Positions 9,800-40,490 of a DNA stretch of 64,000 bases are shown here, in pieces (the stretch's first letter is position 1; the number at the start of each line of letters is the position of its first letter). The position numbers and the translations under genes are program-made. The notes beneath the pieces were generated by a model, which was not told where the DNA came from, did no database searches, and saw only the letters and a program-made list of their open reading frames with translations. The stretch is from a virus: positions 73,948 to 137,947 of IMG/VR virus record IMGVR_UViG_3300042923_000524. One strand, written 5' to 3'.

Positions 9800-11690
9800 T
9801 TGATTTTATAATTTTATATTAGTTATTTAATCATAACATGGATATACAGAATGTCAATAACAAATATAAAAGTGTACTTAAAAAATATGGTTTTAAATAT
9901 AGTGAATTTAAAGTGATTTTAAGACATTGAGATGATAAGGGGTGTTTTGGTATTGGGAATGGGTAAAGTTTTGTTATAGATTAAATTGGAATTCGGAGAG
10001 GGGATTTGGAAGATATATCTTTGGTAGGATTTATTATTAGTTTTGATTATGTAAGAAATATATGCATAGTGGAGTGCATGATAGATACATATGCATTGTA
10101 GACTGCATAATTAAAGAAGGTATTAAGTCAATTATATTTAGTTTTAAGACATTATTTATTTTAGTGGTGTATTTATATTATGTGAGTGGGAAGTTTTATT
10201 AGGGATTATTATATTAATTGGAGAAGGGATATCGTAATGGGAGAATTGGGTGGGAATTTGGTTATCGGTTTGTTGGGTGGTATGGTTTGGATTATTTGGG
10301 TTAAGTGTTGGAATTGCTCTGTTTGATGTTTTGGTATTGGGTTTGTTTACAGAATGTAGTCGGATTTATTGTGTAATTTCAATGGGTATAGGGTATTGTG
10401 GGTATTTTTTAATATTATTATTGTAAATACATGCCCCATTATTGGTAGAGATTGTAAGTTGTAGACGATAGTTTTGTCGATGTGGGATGGGTGGATTTTT
10501 GATTTTGTTTTGTAAAATTATACATTCGATTTCGTATTTTAGGTTGGGTGTGTTTGTTGATGTACTCATGTCCCCATCTGCTAAATGATAATTATTATTA
10601 ATGTAAACTATGCCCTACCTTATGAAGCTGCTTTATTGACCAATAGCAATAAATACCTTTCAACCATTGATATTACTATGTTTAAAGGTATTTATTACAT
10701 TGTAAAAACATATCCTATAATGATTATTATGTTGTATGTTATGCATTATGTAAGCTAATAAAGGGAATAATAGTACTATAGAAGGTTGTTTTACTCTGGT
10801 TTATTGGATGCTCTGAATGGTTACATATAATTGCAGAATATTGCATAGTTATAATGTAAAGTTCGCTTTACATAACAGCGGTTGTTACGTTGAAGTATTA
10901 GGTTAGTTACTTAACTAATTAACCACTGTATTAATACAATAATACAATATCAAATACATGCAAAATAATTTGCACTATAGCAAATATATTTGCACTATAA
11001 TTATATCATTACAATTAATCATCTATTGTCAACTAACTAAAACTACAAGTTAACAATTAAATCACTAACCTAATAATCTAATAGTATTGTTAACTACAAT
11101 CAAACAAAAGGTTAACAATCAATCATACAATAACCAATACAACCATATACATTAACCATAACTATATTATACATTAATTAATACTACTACACATAGTAAT
11201 CAATACTACATAATTGTATATAAATTACAAAACAATTCAAACTGCATCAAATACAACCTAATACATTATATCACATATTAAACTAATACAATATCATACA
11301 GTACCTATAAACATACTATGCTACACACTAATATTACATATCCTTTATACATCCACTGCATAACCAATCATACAATAACTAATATAAAACTCCACTCCAT
11401 CCAATACCCTTCAAACGCTCCAAAATGCCTTTAAACGAATTAAACCCTTTTAGCATACACTAACACTATTCTCCAAAAACAATAGCTTTCCTTATATTGC
11501 AATGCTTACAACATATACCATCATAAACCAGTAATAAGCTAATAAAATGCATAAAATAAATACATAAACTAATACCATTATTAAAACTCTATTATATAAT
11601 ATATAAAAAATATATTTACAAATACTAATATAAAACTATTGCAAATTAAAATAATAACTATATAATAGTATATAGAATCAATTATATAAG
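9800..11690. other. long non-coding region with G/T-rich to A/C-rich strand switch (origin or genome-end candidate)
   Basis: no credible ORF; G-rich to about 10560, C-rich from about 10920; IRs at 10648-10696 and 10854-10873. Confidence 0.6.
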
Positions 11691-19348: not shown

Positions 19349-19350
19349 AT

Positions 19351-19419
19351 CTCGACTATGCGAGTATAAACAGACTTTAAGCATAGAGCGTTAACAGGTT
19401 TAACAGCCTGTTAGGTAGT
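19351..19419 (+). ncRNA. pistol self-cleaving ribozyme
   Basis: P1 ctcg/cgag, pseudoknot ctatg/catag, UAUAAACAG linker, P2 act/agt, UUAAGC, GCG, P3 ttaacagg/cctgttag, GU cleavage dinucleotide. Confidence 0.85.
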
Positions 19420-19778
19420 AATAAATAATAAATTAATAGGAGTGATTTATCAATGCCAAGTAAAACAGTAAGAGAAACGGAATATAATAAAACAATCCAA
19501 TATAAAGACGGACAAATGACATATTGTATCAACTATAGAAAAGAATTTCATAAATCATTTATAAATGGTTTTAGATGGGTAGAATGTTAATTCAATAAAA
19601 TCCAAATTTGGTCATCATGTAAAAATTTAGGAGGTGCGTATAATGTGTAGAATCTGTGGAGCAGAAACAAAAGAAACTATTTGTAAAGAGTGTCAAAAAG
19701 AATTAATCAAAGAAAACTATAACAAAACTTTTATTAAAATATCAAAATAAAAATATAAAATTATAGGAGAGTGTAAAA

Positions 19779-21553: not shown

Positions 21554-21625
21554 ACAGGTCACAGCCTGTATAAATAGTGCTTTAAGCTGTGAGCGTGTCA
21601 AGGTATAACAGCCTTGACGATAGCA
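21554..21625 (+). ncRNA. pistol ribozyme (second copy, AU at cleavage junction)
   Basis: P1 acagg/cctgt, pseudoknot tcacag/ctgtga, AUAAAUAG, P2 tgct/agca, UUAAGC, GCG, P3 tgtcaagg/ccttgacg. Confidence 0.8.
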
Positions 21626-33020: not shown

Positions 33021-33689
33021 GTGGTAATTGAAATGACAACATGCATTCAAAACATTAATAGTCACACTACATACGATAAACCAATAAACACACTAATCAA
33101 CGCAGCACAAAAATTATTAGAGGTACGGAAAGGTGATTTGATATTTGTAGACTTTGACCAACTAATAAAAAGTGGTAGAGACCATAGTATACAATCGAAA
33201 CCTAGACCAGCGGTAGTTTTAAGCAATAACGTTGGAAACAAGTTTTCACCTACTATTTGGGTGGCAACATTAACTTCTAATCTTAACAAAAATAAACTAC
33301 CAACACATGTAAAAGTATCTGAAGAAACAGGACTTAGATTTGATTCGTTGGTTTTAGTAGAACAGGTATTCACAATTGACAAAAAACTTATATTATCAAA
33401 AGTGGGGAAATGTTCAGCACATATAATGGAGCAAATTGACACAGCAGTTAAAATTCAAGCAGGTACAATTGATTTAGAGTATATAGAAGATACAGTTAAT
33501 TGGATTAATAAAGTAGAGTGCGAAGCTCGAATAAATGGGTTTGACCCAGAGGATGCAAGATTACACACTAGACTAGTTAAGGAATTGCAATCTTATTGTA
33601 ATCAATATGGATATGATTATACTAAGGTATTAAAAGAAAAAACATTTATAAAAGTCTCCGTGGACAATAGAAAACAAAATGCAATGTAA
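33021..33689 (+). CDS. MazF/PemK (NdoA-like) endoribonuclease toxin with N- and C-terminal extensions
   Basis: KGDLIFVDF, SKPRPAVVLSNNVGNKFSPT, TLTS, DSLVLVEQVFTIDK; catalytic R and T present. Confidence 0.88.
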   Translation: MVIEMTTCIQNINSHTTYDKPINTLINAAQKLLEVRKGDLIFVDFDQLIKSGRDHSIQSKPRPAVVLSNNVGNKFSPTIWVATLTSNLNKNKLPTHVKVSEETGLRFDSLVLVEQVFTIDKKLILSKVGKCSAHIMEQIDTAVKIQAGTIDLEYIEDTVNWINKVECEARINGFDPEDARLHTRLVKELQSYCNQYGYDYTKVLKEKTFIKVSVDNRKQNAM

Positions 33690-33698
33690 AATATAAAA

Positions 33699-34358
33699 AT
33701 GGAGGACGGCATGATGAACAATAATTTTGTAGGGGAACAGAATGAGGTTAGAACTTTTATAGATAAAAGTAAATTTAATGAAGCAATTTTTAAATGTAAA
33801 ACAGTATTAGAAACATTAAACGATAATTATATCGAAGATAATCACAACAAATGGTTTTTTAATCTAAGAATTGCAATATGTTATAGAAAAAAAGGTCAAT
33901 TTAAAAAAGCATTAAATTATGTATTTGAAAGTAAAAACTACACAAATGATTTAAAAGAGCATATGGAATGTAATTGGGTTTTAGGAAATTGTTATTACTC
34001 TATGAAGTTATATAAAAAAGCTACACTATTTTTTAGACAATGCAGTGACTACTTTACAAACAACAACATGGAAGATGAACGTATTCATATGGATTTCAAC
34101 ATTGCAAAAATTGAAAATGACGATGTAAAAATTAATAGACTTTTGATTGAAGCTTATAATATGGTAAATATCGATGCCGATTCTCTAAGTAATGCAGAGT
34201 GGTTTTTCAACAACGCTTATGAAACCCTCTGCGAAATATACATAGATAGAAATCAATTAGAAATTTTTGAAGAAACTATTGTTAAAATTAAAGATAGAAA
34301 TATTGTTGATGATTTACGAAATAGAATGCAAGTGGTGAATATCACTAACATTTTATAA
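33699..34358 (+). CDS. TPR-like peptide receptor (RRNPP-like, no HTH)
   Basis: LRIAICYRKKGQFKKALNY, VLGNCYYSMKLYKKATLFF repeats; directly precedes a propeptide. Confidence 0.7.
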   Translation: MEDGMMNNNFVGEQNEVRTFIDKSKFNEAIFKCKTVLETLNDNYIEDNHNKWFFNLRIAICYRKKGQFKKALNYVFESKNYTNDLKEHMECNWVLGNCYYSMKLYKKATLFFRQCSDYFTNNNMEDERIHMDFNIAKIENDDVKINRLLIEAYNMVNIDADSLSNAEWFFNNAYETLCEIYIDRNQLEIFEETIVKIKDRNIVDDLRNRMQVVNITNIL

Positions 34359-34380
34359 TATAAAACAAGGAGGAAAAAGA

Positions 34381-34527
34381 ATGAAAAAAATTGCATTGTT
34401 TCTCACAACAGTTGCGGTACTTGCGATGTTGGTTGGAGGTATGGTTTTTGCTTCTGACGTTACAGACCCAAAAGTAGCTAAACCAGTGGTAGTGAGTCCT
34501 AATTCTGACGTTACAGACCCAAGATAA
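34381..34527 (+). CDS. 48-aa secreted signalling propeptide (AimP/Phr-like; not in ORF track)
   Basis: MKKIALFLTTVAVLAMLVGGMVFA-SDVTDPK-VAKPVVVSPN-SDVTDPR; AGGAGG RBS; 20-bp DNA repeat at 34452 and 34503. Confidence 0.85.
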   Translation: MKKIALFLTTVAVLAMLVGGMVFASDVTDPKVAKPVVVSPNSDVTDPR

Positions 34528-34539
34528 TTAATAAAACAA

Positions 34540-34558
34540 GAGGGGTGAAATGCCCCTC
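34540..34558 (+). terminator. hairpin after propeptide
   Basis: gaggggtgaaatgcccctc. Confidence 0.6.
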
Positions 34559-34595
34559 AAACAAAAAACTACAATAAAAATGAGGTGACAACATT

Positions 34596-34946
34596 ATGAT
34601 AGACCAAAACAAAGTAAAAAATCTATGTGAAAAATATAAAATCAACTACAAAATACATCCTAATAATATCTATATGGAAACTCCATTAAATACTTGGATA
34701 TGTGAAGATAAGGATACTCACTATCGCCTTAAACATAAAAATAAAGGTGTCTGTAAACATACGATGCATATGCACGATAGAAAATTTGAAAATGTAAATG
34801 AAGTATTAGAATATATACATACTCATGACACAAAGACAATATTTGACCGTAGAAGAAGTAATGAGAGAAGATTAGATAGGTTATTTGAATCTATATCAAT
34901 ACATAAAAAATCAAATAAGAAAATAAATAAATCAATTAGTATATAA
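34596..34946 (+). CDS. hypothetical protein
   Basis: RBS; His-rich. Confidence 0.65.
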   Translation: MIDQNKVKNLCEKYKINYKIHPNNIYMETPLNTWICEDKDTHYRLKHKNKGVCKHTMHMHDRKFENVNEVLEYIHTHDTKTIFDRRRSNERRLDRLFESISIHKKSNKKINKSISI

Positions 34947-35078
34947 ATAGATTAACATAAATAATGAATATAAATATTTTTCATGATTCACACATACATA
35001 TCAGTATAATTACTTGACACCAAGGATATAATTATATTAAGATATAAATAAGAATGAATATAAAAGGATGTGTGAGTT

Positions 35079-36389
35079 ATGAAAATAGGAAAAGATAGAG
35101 ATTTACTAGAGAAAGAATTAGCAAAAATATTCGTAAAGTATAATTTAGATAATAATGTAATCAATAAAATTAAAGAAGAATTTATATCAAGAGGGGTATC
35201 TTCAGGAGAATTCTTGTCTATTATAGATGGCAAAATTCAGATTGAAACAATCCCTCTTAATATGCTTTGTCTTTTAACAGAGTTGTTTTATAAAGAAACT
35301 ACAGAGCAAAATATAAAACCAGAAACTTATTTTACTGAACAAGAAATTAACACAGCTAAGAATTTTAGACGAGAGTCAGAAGAACAATCTAAATATCCAT
35401 TAGTATTTGAAAATGTCATGAAGATTGGTGATGACCACTATGTAACATATAAAACAGCTCAAGAAGTTGCTGGTTACTATGCAAAGAATTTAATTGTTTA
35501 TAACAAACAAACTCAAAGAAATGCAAAGTACAGTGAGTATCAAGATAAAATTGTTGAAATGATAAGTATAAATAAATCTTCTATTTCTGATATTGCAAAA
35601 GATATTGTTGAGGGCAGACAAATTACAAACTTTATCACTTTTAATATTCTTCAAAATGGCGAAGAGAATTTTGAATATGATGCTAAAAATAAAACTTTAA
35701 CTGTATTTGAAGGTGAGATTGATATACTTGACGGTTTTCATAGGTCAATGGGAATTCTCTCAGCAGTACAGAAAGAGCCTAATGTAAAATATATCACTGG
35801 AATTAATATAGTGAATTGGGATATTGAAAAATCAAGAAGATTTATTGTACAGGAAGATAAGAGAAATAAGATTAATGCTTCTCATGTAAAATCACTTAAT
35901 CCAGATAGATATGAAAACATGATTATTAAAAAACTAAATGAGAGTAGTTCAAGTGATTTAAAAGGCAAAATTACTACAGATAATTTATTTATAAGAAAAC
36001 ATAAAGCTTTAACAACATATGATGTTATTAATAATACTATTCAAAAAGAATATAAAGACATTAAAACCAATAGAGATGCTTCTTTAATTGCTGAATGGTT
36101 AATTGAATTCTTTAATGAATTAATTGGTTTGTATCCAACTGAGTTTTTAACTGAAATTGAATCTACTAAGGAAACTTCATTTATTAACAATGAGAATATG
36201 TTCGCAGGTTATATTTCACTTTCAAAAGAATTACAGAATGTTAGCAATTGGAGACAAAAACTACAGGAAGTGATGAGTAAAATTGATTTTAGCGTTAATA
36301 ATTCTAAGTGGGAAAGTCTTAAATCTGCAACAGAATTAAACAAGAGATTATTAAAGAATATATCTAATTATTTTAGAGAGATTGTTTAG
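35079..36389 (+). CDS. SPbeta YopQ-like DGQHR/ParB-fold protein
   Basis: IDILDGFHR motif; size and position directly upstream of a YopR-like gene. Confidence 0.65.
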   Translation: MKIGKDRDLLEKELAKIFVKYNLDNNVINKIKEEFISRGVSSGEFLSIIDGKIQIETIPLNMLCLLTELFYKETTEQNIKPETYFTEQEINTAKNFRRESEEQSKYPLVFENVMKIGDDHYVTYKTAQEVAGYYAKNLIVYNKQTQRNAKYSEYQDKIVEMISINKSSISDIAKDIVEGRQITNFITFNILQNGEENFEYDAKNKTLTVFEGEIDILDGFHRSMGILSAVQKEPNVKYITGINIVNWDIEKSRRFIVQEDKRNKINASHVKSLNPDRYENMIIKKLNESSSSDLKGKITTDNLFIRKHKALTTYDVINNTIQKEYKDIKTNRDASLIAEWLIEFFNELIGLYPTEFLTEIESTKETSFINNENMFAGYISLSKELQNVSNWRQKLQEVMSKIDFSVNNSKWESLKSATELNKRLLKNISNYFREIV

Positions 36390-36418
36390 TTAAAAAATTA
36401 AGAAAGGTGTGAATATAA

Positions 36419-37384
36419 TTGAAACATTTTATTATGTATAATCCAGAATTAAAAAATGTTTATCTTAATACTATTGACAACGAAGGAACTAGAGAAAATA
36501 TTGGATATACTTTTCAAAAGGCTAGAATACTAGAAGATGAAAAAGGAAAAGATATATGTCATTTTAATTTTGATGAATTAGGTGAATTATGGAGTAGCTT
36601 CAGAGCAAAAAGTTTTGCTGCCATTACTACTAAAGTTAGTATTATAGTTAAGTATATTGACTTTTGTATTGATAAAGGATTGGCTGATGTAAACTACAAT
36701 TGGGCAAAGATGTACTTTAATGAAGATGGATTAAGACCATATGTAAGCAAAGTTGCTATAGGTAATAAAATAATTGACAAAGAAACTTTAGAAGATATAA
36801 TTGATTTTTGTGCTAACGCTCAAGATGCTGTAATCTTTGCATTATTATTTGAAGGTGTAAAGGGTAGACCAATACAAGAAAATGCCTTTGAAGAAGTTAG
36901 GAATCTTAGAATGGTTGATTGTAATACTGATACTAATGATATTATACTAAGACAAGATGATGGTAAAACAAGAGTTATTCAAATATCTGAAAGAACTATG
37001 AATTTAATAGTAGATGCTTATAATCAACAAACGTATTTAAGAAAAAATGGCGAATCAACCGCAAAACTTAAAGAGATAGAAATGATTGATACAGGTTATG
37101 TTTTAAAATTAGGTGATATAGGCAAGAATTCCAATTCGAGTGAAGATAGAATAAGTCATCAAGTTTTATTTAGAAGACTAAAGAATATTGCAAAAGCATA
37201 TGGAAATAGTTTTTTAACACCTACTAATATTTACATGAGTGGAATGGTTGACTATGCTCAAAGACTGCAAACTGAAAAAGGTGTAGAATTAGACAATAAT
37301 GATTATATTCATATATGTGAGAAATATGGAATAGACCCTAAAAGATGGTATAAGATAAAAGTGGAGATTAAGCAGTATCTATAA
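36419..37384 (+). CDS. SPbeta YopR/MrpR-like master repressor (inactive tyrosine-recombinase fold)
   Basis: MYNPELKNVYL, GKDICHF, LLFEGVKG, YLRKNG, FLTPTNIYMSG; lacks the RHR catalytic set. Confidence 0.8.
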   Translation: MKHFIMYNPELKNVYLNTIDNEGTRENIGYTFQKARILEDEKGKDICHFNFDELGELWSSFRAKSFAAITTKVSIIVKYIDFCIDKGLADVNYNWAKMYFNEDGLRPYVSKVAIGNKIIDKETLEDIIDFCANAQDAVIFALLFEGVKGRPIQENAFEEVRNLRMVDCNTDTNDIILRQDDGKTRVIQISERTMNLIVDAYNQQTYLRKNGESTAKLKEIEMIDTGYVLKLGDIGKNSNSSEDRISHQVLFRRLKNIAKAYGNSFLTPTNIYMSGMVDYAQRLQTEKGVELDNNDYIHICEKYGIDPKRWYKIKVEIKQYL

Positions 37385-38499: not shown

Positions 38500-38712
38500 A
38501 AAGGAGTAAAACCTTTAATTGTCTGCAAGGATAATTTCGCCTATAGTCGAGATAGTGACAAGTAAATCTTATTAATAAGTTTTGTAATACACTCGATAAG
38601 GTAATAAGTGCGAAAGTGAAGCGAACGTGTTTCTACTGTAGTATTCGCACCTATTGAAACTGCTAACACAAAGTCCGTTAGCACAACTTATAATTAAATA
38701 CAATTGTAACAA
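38500..38712 (+). ncRNA. Cas12f1 tracrRNA (ends approximate)
   Basis: anti-repeat acaacttataattaaatacaattgtaac at 38683-38710; segments cactcgataaggt and tgaaac-stem-acaaag-stem resemble AsCas12f1 tracrRNA as recalled. Confidence 0.8.
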
Positions 38713-38775
38713 TTGAATAGTTTCGCATTATTATAACTTAAAAGTGTTGAAAATGCTGTTTTGGATTTGTAAGCA

Positions 38776-39070
38776 GTTACAATTTGTATATTATATAGGT
38801 TGTAAGTTTTAGAGCATTGATTTCTGTTTCTATTGCGTTTAAAGTTACAATTTGTATATTATATGAGTTGTAAGTTACTTTGCAAATGTCGAAAATAGAT
38901 GTATAATTATTACAATTTGTATATAAATATGGGTTGTAAGTTGACTACAGGTGTTAATATTTATTTATTCTTCATGTTGCAGTGTATTATATGAGCTGTA
39001 AGTTTAAAAGCCATTTATAAAATCATCTTTGTATTTGCTTTTGCAATCTGTATATTATATGAGTTCTAAG
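38776..39070 (+). CRISPR. CRISPR array, 5 repeats / 4 spacers
   Basis: repeat GTTACAATTTGTATATTATATGAGTTGTAAG at 38776, 38844, 38909, 38976 (degenerate) and 39040; spacers 37, 34, 35, 37 nt. Confidence 0.92.
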
Positions 39071-39176: not shown

Positions 39177-40490
39177 ATGAATAAATGTATAAAAATAACA
39201 ATAAAAAATTGTATAAATATAGATAAATATAGACAGGTATTAAGGGATTTAAGATATCAAACTTGGTTAGCAAGTAATAAAGCTATGACTAATTATTATA
39301 CTTTTGCATTAGAGAACATGGAATATAAAAACATAAATGGAATCAACATAAATGAGAAAGAGAGATATGGTAAAAGTTATGATGCATGGATACAAAATAG
39401 AATGAATGAGATTATGACCATGCATCAAAGTGGGAATGTAGCTCAAACAGCACAATTTGTCGCTAAGAGATTTAAAGACGATATAAAAAAAGGTATGTTT
39501 AAAGGCAAGATATCAATATCTAATTTTAAACAAGATATCCCACTTATTATACATAATAAAAACTATAAAATCATACAGGGTGATAAGGGATATAAAATTG
39601 AATGTAGTTTATTTAATAGAGAATACCAAAAAGAAAATATTATTAAAAAAGCTGAATTTCAAATTGATAAGATTGATAATAATTGTAAAAGTGTATTAAA
39701 TAGAATTATATCTGGTGAATATAAGCAGGGTTCTATGCAAATTACAGAAGATAAAAAAGGTAAATGGTATTTTATAATTAGTTATAGTTTTGAAGCATCC
39801 AAACAAACTTTTGACCAAAATAGAATATTAGGCATAGATTTAGGTATAACTAAAGTAGCTACAATGCAAATATTTGATAAAACCATTGAAGAGTGGGATA
39901 GATTATCTTGGAAAGAATGTATGATGGATGGTAGAGAGTTAATACATTATAGACAAAAGATAGAAGCGAGAAAAAAACAATTACAAATAGCTAGTAAGTG
40001 GTGTGGAGAAGGTAGAGTTGGTCATGGTACTAAAACAAGAATGAAACCTTTAGATAAAATAGGAAGTGTGGTAAGTAATTTTAAAGATACATATAATCAT
40101 AAAATAAGCAGATATATAATAGATTTTGCTATTAAACATAATTGCGGAATAATTCAAATGGAAGATTTAAGTGGATTTAGTGAACAACAAACAGAAAGTT
40201 TATTAAAGAATTGGAGTTATTTTGATTTACAAACTAAGATAAAATATAAAGCCGAAGAAAAGGGAGTAGAGGTTATATTTATTAATCCTCAATATACAAG
40301 TAAAAGATGTAGTAGGTGTGGTTGTATAGACACACGAAATAGAGATTGTGAAAATAATCAATCCAAGTTTGAATGTGTAACTTGTGGTCATAAAGAAAAT
40401 GCAGATATAAATGCAGCGAAAAATATTAGTATGCCTGATATTGAAGAAATTATTGGTGAATACATAAAATATGGTTTAAAAGTAAGTTAA
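39177..40490 (+). CDS. cas12f1: Cas12f1 (type V-F, TnpB-related) RNA-guided nuclease
   Basis: RuvC ILGIDLG, IQMEDLS, NADINAA; CSRC...CVTC; VGHGTKTRMKP and IISGEYK segments like AsCas12f1; adjacent array and tracrRNA. Confidence 0.88.
   Translation: MNKCIKITIKNCINIDKYRQVLRDLRYQTWLASNKAMTNYYTFALENMEYKNINGININEKERYGKSYDAWIQNRMNEIMTMHQSGNVAQTAQFVAKRFKDDIKKGMFKGKISISNFKQDIPLIIHNKNYKIIQGDKGYKIECSLFNREYQKENIIKKAEFQIDKIDNNCKSVLNRIISGEYKQGSMQITEDKKGKWYFIISYSFEASKQTFDQNRILGIDLGITKVATMQIFDKTIEEWDRLSWKECMMDGRELIHYRQKIEARKKQLQIASKWCGEGRVGHGTKTRMKPLDKIGSVVSNFKDTYNHKISRYIIDFAIKHNCGIIQMEDLSGFSEQQTESLLKNWSYFDLQTKIKYKAEEKGVEVIFINPQYTSKRCSRCGCIDTRNRDCENNQSKFECVTCGHKENADINAAKNISMPDIEEIIGEYIKYGLKVS

Follow-up and report, generated by a model that had tools for sequence, protein, structure and literature searches.

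Why would a spacer in a phage-borne CRISPR array look like a complete bacterial promoter with a binding site for the sporulation regulator Spo0A? The preliminary description of this DNA proposed two answers for spacer 2 of the array. In one, the guide is directed against a promoter under sporulation control, belonging to the host or to a rival phage; in the other, the spacer acts in cis as a sporulation-responsive promoter for the downstream spacers and cas12f.

The phage and its CRISPR-Cas12f locus

The stretch of DNA analyzed (the window) makes up the rightmost 64 kb of a 137,947-bp virus record in IMG/VR, and all coordinates follow the numbering of the window. The virus record has direct terminal repeats and represents a ~138-kb Clostridium-type phage. 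The locus is a predicted phage-borne, minimal type V-F CRISPR-Cas12f system without an adaptation module; a search of the whole phage found no encoded Cas1. A tracrRNA-like region, the array and cas12f follow one another in that order and are all co-directional on the plus strand. The features are as follows, where PFOR stands for pyruvate:ferredoxin (flavodoxin) oxidoreductase:

38560–38740 (ends approximate), plus strand: tracrRNA-like scaffold, with compensatory changes in the sister phages L005 and L006 and conserved also in L017
38688–38712, plus strand: anti-repeat inside the tracrRNA-like region, with a predicted duplex with the repeats
38776–38806, plus strand: repeat 1 (R1), by direct reading
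38807–38843, plus strand: spacer 1, unique
38844–38874, plus strand: repeat 2 (R2), intact, the handle of the spacer-2 crRNA, by direct reading and duplex energy
38875–38909, plus strand: spacer 2, a near-copy of a Clostridium PFOR promoter (31/35 identical to contig C89 of genome G319; L095 1499–1533)
38880–38885, plus strand: −35-like hexamer TTGCAA in spacer 2, by direct reading and promoter scan
38887–38893, plus strand: perfect Spo0A box (0A box) TGTCGAA between the −35 and the −10, one of only five in 138 kb
38902–38907, plus strand: −10 hexamer TATAAT, by direct reading and promoter scan
38910–38940, plus strand: repeat 3 (R3), with several substitutions, by direct reading and duplex energy
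38941–38975, plus strand: spacer 3, no protospacer matched
38976–39002, plus strand: repeat 4 (R4), with a 4-nt deletion, by direct reading and duplex energy
39003–39039, plus strand: spacer 4, no protospacer matched
39040–39070, plus strand: repeat 5 (R5), the degenerate terminal repeat, by direct reading and duplex energy
39177–40490, plus strand: cas12f, 437 aa, AsCas12f-like and predicted nuclease-competent (Pfam, PDB match, invariant residues)

An array with unique spacers lies adjacent to the effector gene, as in other type V-F loci. It comprises five repeats of 27–31 nt and four unique spacers of 35–37 nt, with repeat spacings of 68, 66, 66, and 64 nt. The repeats decay rightwards, towards cas12f, and spacers 1 and 2 follow the best-preserved ones. 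Unlike the spacers of the sister array in L005, all four spacers (starting at 38807, 38875, 38941, and 39003) begin with TT. The functional repeat may therefore be 33 nt long, in which case the PAM reading would shift by 2 nt.

The upstream region has the tracrRNA and anti-repeat expected of a type V-F system, as far as a predicted RNA can be read from the letters. An alignment with L005 and L006 contains paired changes (GCTAAC/GTTAGC versus GCTGGC/GTCAGC). The predicted duplex of the anti-repeat with R1 and R2 has an energy of −19.9 and −20.3 kcal/mol, respectively, compared with −6.8 ± 2.3 kcal/mol for shuffled repeats. The duplex is weaker with the distal repeats (−15.2 kcal/mol for R4 and −14.0 kcal/mol for R5). 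In the sister phages, the tracrRNA-like region ends in a repeat-like tail, GTTGTAAG / GTTGCAAG (L005 2668–2708; L006 2767–2805; window 38745–38775). The ~31-nt stretch that follows the tail is similar between L005 and L006; it could be no more than leader, or it could be a 'zeroth guide' that has been conserved.

The cas12f product matches the Pfam family Cas12f1-like_TNB (PF07282, E 3e-22) and, over residues 17–431, the AsCas12f structures 8J12/7WJU in the PDB (E about 1e-81). D221, E329, and D410 of the RuvC triad and C378/C381/C400/C403 of the zinc finger are invariant in an alignment of 20 relatives. The effector is, as in type V-F, a small protein of the Cas12f/TnpB fold with the RuvC D-E-D residues and a zinc finger. 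The Cas12f proteins of the two sister phages are 65–66% identical to it, and other relatives are found in Clostridium sp. OS1-26, C. paraputrificum, Sarcina, and two Bacillota MAGs (contigs of 158 and 176 kb). Within Clostridium, genes for closely related Cas12f proteins are common, and occur on C. perfringens plasmids of ~50 kb, in C. tetani, and on the chromosome of a Clostridium sp. In a comparison of L016, L019–L022, and L045 with L017, L018, L023, and L027, a tracrRNA and an array were present upstream of some copies, and no array was seen in the 1 kb upstream of others. The array-less copies may be stand-alone, TnpB-like proteins.

Two other features of the phage lie to the left of the locus. 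A pair of Pistol ribozymes, ~2.2 kb apart on the plus strand (19350–19420 and 21554–21625), exceeds the Rfam gathering threshold, with scores of 64.1 and 59.9 bits. Immediately before the CRISPR locus, positions 33021–37384 encode a MazF/PemK-like toxin, a TPR protein, a DndB-like protein, and an MrpR-like recombinase-fold repressor. Such genes would fit an SPbeta-like regulatory region of a temperate phage.

Promoter motifs in spacer 2

Spacer 2 reads TTACTTTGCAAATGTCGAAAATAGATGTATAATTA (38875–38909). The −35-like hexamer, perfect 0A box, and consensus −10 that the preliminary description had assigned to it were all recovered at the same positions by direct reading and by a promoter scan. The hexamers TTGCAA and TATAAT are 16 nt apart, within the 16–18 nt spacing of sigma-A promoters, and the scan gave the site a score of 10/12. 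The heptamer between them conforms to the 0A box consensus TGNCGAA (bioRxiv 10.1101/2024.07.15.603595), and the box is placed at a promoter-like sequence.

Promoter-like sites occur at chance level in the AT-rich window (17 found, 16.7 expected). Across the whole phage, a perfect TATAAT is preceded at 16–18 nt by a −35 with four or more of six positions matched at 93 sites, or ~0.4% per 34-nt segment. Perfect 0A boxes (TGTCGAA/TTCGACA) number only five in the 138-kb phage, and only in spacer 2, read on either strand, does one of them overlap a promoter-like site. Because this combination is rare, a random draw of phage-like DNA is a poor explanation for the spacer.

Several related observations were made along the way. 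The looser word TGNCGAA occurs 30 times in the whole phage, about twice the 13.9 expected under a second-order Markov model (analytic). Two of the five perfect 0A boxes (43588 and 43620) flank the promoter of an agr-like operon. We considered spacer 2 as a diverged copy of this 0A-box promoter of the phage itself (43588–43640) and rejected the candidate, as the resemblance is one of generic motifs only. A minus-strand promoter-like site (38858–38886) combines the palindromic TTGCAA of spacer 2 with a TATAAT in repeat 2, and a minus-strand TATAAT is present in every repeat.

Searches for a protospacer

The preliminary description reported no protospacer in the window. This holds, and for spacer 2 it is also true of the entire phage genome with as many as three mismatches allowed. 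This phage and the two sister phages do not target one another in any direction. Exact patterns of spacer 2 found no match among the 2.9 million contigs of IMG/VR (29-mer, 22-mer, and IUPAC-merged 28-mer), in JGI metagenome contigs (22-mer and IUPAC-merged 28-mer), or in GTDB genomes, taken as one per species (22-mer). A BLAST of spacer 2 against INPHARED resulted in chance matches only (E = 4). The whole array gave nothing against PLSDB and only weak matches against INPHARED (E = 0.08).

The other spacers gave similar results. Spacers 1 and 3 have no protospacer in the phage, in IMG/VR (searched as a 25-mer and a 24-mer, respectively), or in 130 Clostridium genomes, and spacer 3 also has no match in eight chosen genomes. 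Spacer 4 has none in the phage, in IMG/VR (25-mer), or in the same eight genomes. Spacer 1 had been described as coding on the reverse strand. It does read through as LNAIETEINALK, but 12 open codons are little proof of coding.

These searches leave room for a first alternative, in which spacer 2 was taken from a rival mobile element (a phage, plasmid, or integrative element) outside the databases. Phage-borne arrays mostly target competing phages (Al-Shayeb et al., 2020, PMC7162821), and the lack of an exact match for all four spacers in any collection is what one would expect of unsampled soil mobile elements. The resemblance to a PFOR promoter, described below, would then be a coincidence of two Spo0A-box promoters, or the element would have captured such a promoter.

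A near-match at the Clostridium PFOR promoter

A search that allowed mismatches was made with the 32-nt core of spacer 2 against 401 Clostridiaceae species genomes and a complete genus of 130 genomes, with one genome per species. The bacterial genomes were reached through the relatives of Cas12f. A single match with three or fewer mismatches was found, at positions 11438–11469 of contig C89 in genome G319. It is identical at 29/32 positions, or at 31/35 with the flanks included: CTACTTTTCAAATGTCGAAAAAAGATATATAATTA. The search of the 130-genome genus returned this same site only. The reversed pattern, used as a control, had no matches, and spacers 1 and 3, which serve as informal controls, had none in the same 130 genomes. 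Comparing 20 kb of phage DNA with G319 by BLAST recovered the site independently.

The site is located in a 354-bp intergenic region between divergent genes, cls (cardiolipin synthase) and a 1172-aa ORF. The ORF, WP_294156537.1, is the PFOR of an uncultured Clostridium sp., which falls in a 90% identity cluster with the PFOR of C. butyricum, and the site is ~135 nt upstream of this gene. The near-match lies in a promoter region upstream of PFOR, with ATTA on its 5′ side, and not in coding DNA that has no promoter role, the location that the preliminary description had named as counting against its proposal.

Any two promoters of this type share motifs, and we guarded against this by counting the layout itself. 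The pattern TTNCAA-N-TGTCGAA-N8-TATAAT occurs at three sites in the 130 Clostridium genomes (G319, G341, and G411); the reversed control has none, and neither do the IMG/VR contigs. All three sites are 132–143 nt upstream of the start codons of orthologous PFOR genes. Their alignment shows an island of 30 columns, 83% invariant, between flanks that are 20–45% invariant. The element is, then, located upstream of the same gene and conserved there in three Clostridium species (L095 1499–1533; L127; L128). A second conserved block at the three PFOR loci covers the last ~60 nt before the ATG. In other species of the genus, the PFOR promoters have the form CTTGCAAAA...TATAAT without a 0A box, which suggests that the TTGCAA form is natural for this gene. 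The promoter part of the PFOR upstream regions of other relatives could not be aligned, and one alignment, in which the wrong side of some loci had probably been taken, was set aside.

The expected number of 32-mers with three or fewer mismatches over all 531 genome searches is ~0.002 from base composition alone. The chance that one of the three layout sites would match at 11 or more of the 13 non-motif positions of the 32-mer is estimated at ~0.004 (taking the probability of a match as 0.4). Outside the three motifs, 13 of the 16 positions of spacer 2 also match G319. These agreements, together with a chance expectation of ~0.002–0.004 and a layout found only at PFOR promoters in the 130 genomes and in no IMG/VR contig, speak against an origin in a rival mobile element. 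The best bacterial match is imperfect, as that explanation would allow, and we consider it unlikely. Of the two targets first proposed for the guide, a sporulation-regulated promoter of a bacterium is supported, in that the sole near-match is a 0A-box PFOR promoter; a promoter of a rival phage is not, with no match in IMG/VR, INPHARED, or the two sister phages.

Where a 0A box sits between the two hexamers, repression by phosphorylated Spo0A (Spo0A-P) is predicted. The conserved 0A-box promoter suggests that PFOR could be under Spo0A control in this Clostridium subclade, where Spo0A-P is predicted to repress it. We found no publication that tests repression by Spo0A-P at PFOR. A PFOR gene carried by the phage itself was also looked for, and none was found.

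Origin and likely target of spacer 2

We read spacer 2 as an ordinary guide derived from a bacterial PFOR promoter, whose crRNA would direct Cas12f to a closely matching promoter, and give this reading a probability of roughly 0.55. The single near-match, the rare layout that is found only at PFOR in 130 genomes, and the conserved island place spacer 2 in this family of PFOR promoters. The spacer would look like a promoter because it copies a real one with a Spo0A box, and its origin explains how a spacer can resemble a perfect promoter. The true protospacer is most likely the orthologous PFOR promoter of an unsampled strain or species, as far as can be judged from the match.

The source of the spacer would be a sigma-A-type promoter whose two hexamers flank a Spo0A box, located ~135 nt ahead of the PFOR gene in one Clostridium subclade. 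Spacer 2 would be transcribed behind the intact repeat 2, and its crRNA would pair with the upstream tracrRNA-like RNA. This crRNA would guide the nuclease-competent Cas12f to the PFOR promoter in any cell or DNA with a close match and a suitable PAM. Since the RuvC residues are intact, cleavage would be the default outcome, and the predicted result is a double-strand cut at the PFOR promoter. PFOR is the entry of pyruvate into acetyl-CoA, ferredoxin, and hydrogen metabolism.

The PAM of AsCas12f is NTTR. Cas12f orthologues use a TTR-type PAM (PMC13186708), which the ATTA 5′ of the G319 site fits; the 4 nt 5′ of the G341 and G411 sites are AATA, not TTR.

Several observations count against this PFOR origin. 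The four mismatches to G319 are at spacer positions 1, 8, 21, and 26, and two of these are PAM-proximal. The PFOR promoters of G341 and G411 match spacer 2 at only 27/35 positions. The other three spacers have no match in the three genomes with the 0A-box PFOR promoter. In the work on huge phages, a protospacer was a match of more than 24 bp with at most one mismatch, with 2–3 mismatches allowed for old spacers (PMC7162821). The match of spacer 2 to G319 (29/32, 31/35) is outside the strict, near-perfect tier and reaches the relaxed tier of three mismatches over 32 nt only.

The phage also has lysogeny-type genes, including the MrpR-like repressor, which count against a guide to its own host. 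With such genes, a nuclease aimed at the chromosome of the host would be costly for the lysogen, and lethal self-targeting is awkward to explain. None of the three genomes with the 0A-box PFOR promoter encodes a Cas12f homologue, and 20 kb of phage DNA has no similarity to them beyond the spacer match. Because neither shared DNA nor Cas12f links the phage to these genomes, and the match has four mismatches in 35 nt, the PFOR bacterium is at most a candidate for the phage's own host. We infer that targeting occurs and that the targeted bacterium is either the host of the phage or a neighbor. Alternatively, the guide may be aimed at the DNA of a neighboring species, may be used in lytic growth only, or may lead to binding without cleavage through a mismatched guide.

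A more elaborate version appears improbable to us. In it, the host's PFOR promoter, with its Spo0A operator, is a deliberate target of the phage's Cas12f, which would cut the chromosome during lytic growth or, through a partially mismatched guide, bind without cutting and silence the promoter; the spacer would double as a Spo0A-gated promoter that times cas12f to the sporulation state of the host.

The spacer could also be a functionless leftover, either an accidental self-derived spacer from a bacterial ancestor that was carried in with a captured array, or a chance resemblance. The locus has no adaptation genes, so its spacers were either passed down or gained in trans; the distal part of the array is in decay, and the match to PFOR is only 31/35. 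Against such a fate, the repeat ahead of spacer 2 is intact, lies close to the leader, and pairs most strongly with the anti-repeat, and the nuclease is intact and conserved. Chance is disfavored both by the expectation from composition and by the layout count. We regard a leftover as quite unlikely.

Spacer 2 as a possible promoter in cis

If spacer 2 is an ordinary guide copied from a PFOR promoter, it could still have an effect within the array. A reading built on the second answer in the preliminary description goes further: the spacer would be kept for a role in cis, as an internal promoter for spacers 3 and 4 and cas12f that responds to host Spo0A-P at the 0A box. The spacer contains the whole of TTGCAA-16-TATAAT, oriented towards cas12f, and the promoter scan flagged no good plus-strand promoter between the array and cas12f. 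Perfect 0A boxes are also found in another promoter of the phage, and promoters within spacers fire in other systems (Blombach et al., 2024, PMC10883916).

The arrays of L005, L006, and L017, however, have unrelated spacers at that place, so the promoter feature is not conserved. The downstream repeats 3–5 are the degenerate ones, and thus the guides boosted by a promoter in spacer 2 would be the poorest of the array. The position of the 0A box between the hexamers predicts repression, not activation. The promoter-like appearance is, moreover, already accounted for by the origin of the spacer. Retention of spacer 2 for a function in cis is, in our view, very unlikely. Activity of any kind in cis is a separate matter. 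The promoter is complete within the spacer and aimed at cas12f, which makes firing plausible, with a predicted start near 38914, 4–5 nt into repeat 3; we would place such activity, as predicted from the motifs, at somewhat below even odds. It may be a cryptic by-product.

Comparison with known systems

The locus resembles AsCas12f1-type systems (type V-F, formerly V-U3; PDB 8J12, 7WJU, 8DZJ) in its 437-aa effector, which aligns end to end and has the RuvC D-E-D residues and zinc finger, and in its upstream tracrRNA-like RNA with an anti-repeat and its adjacent array. AsCas12f interferes with plasmids in E. coli (PMC7229846). The present locus differs in being carried by a 138-kb phage, in having no adaptation module, and in its decaying array of five repeats.

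The arrays of huge phages have spacers that match intergenic regions of the host, for which promoter blocking was proposed, and in one case the guide of a phage Cas14 (Cas12f) is directed at a gene of the host (Al-Shayeb et al., 2020, PMC7162821). Like those arrays, the present one is compact, phage-borne, and without adaptation genes, and has a spacer that matches a bacterial intergenic region or promoter. Unlike in the dCas14 example from that study, the effector retains all of its catalytic residues. Even in the best genome, only 31/35 positions match here, and the phage is not tied to that bacterium as its host.

In the Sulfolobales, AT-rich spacers with promoter elements can start transcription inside arrays (Blombach et al., 2024, PMC10883916). 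Spacer 2 likewise has promoter elements in an AT-rich spacer. The archaeal TATA/BRE promoters arose by chance and are suppressed by Cbp1-Cren7, unlike spacer 2, which appears to be a bacterial sigma-A-type promoter copied whole from a real promoter.

A third comparison is with regulators of the Cas12f/TnpB family. TldR proteins are nuclease-dead repressors derived from TnpB. The dCas12f-sigmaE system, also nuclease-dead, carries out RNA-guided transcription (PMC13472631). The likeness lies in a small protein of the Cas12f/TnpB family with a guide that matches a chromosomal promoter region. TldR and dCas12f-sigmaE have lost RuvC catalysis and have a single dedicated guide; here, D221/E329/D410 are retained and the array has multiple spacers. 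With its catalytic residues intact, the effector is not a member of these nuclease-dead families.

To our knowledge, phage CRISPR guides against host chromosomes are known from metagenomes, almost never with a defined regulatory target. The candidate target here is a specific, conserved promoter of a central metabolic gene of clostridia with a site for a sporulation regulator, and the effector is a compact and apparently active Cas12f. The comparison also draws attention to a Spo0A-box PFOR promoter that is conserved within one Clostridium subclade. Should an exact protospacer be found in a host, this would be a tractable case for distinguishing RNA-guided cutting of host genes by a phage from their reprogramming. 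By every feature that can be tested from its letters, the locus is an AsCas12f-like member of type V-F.
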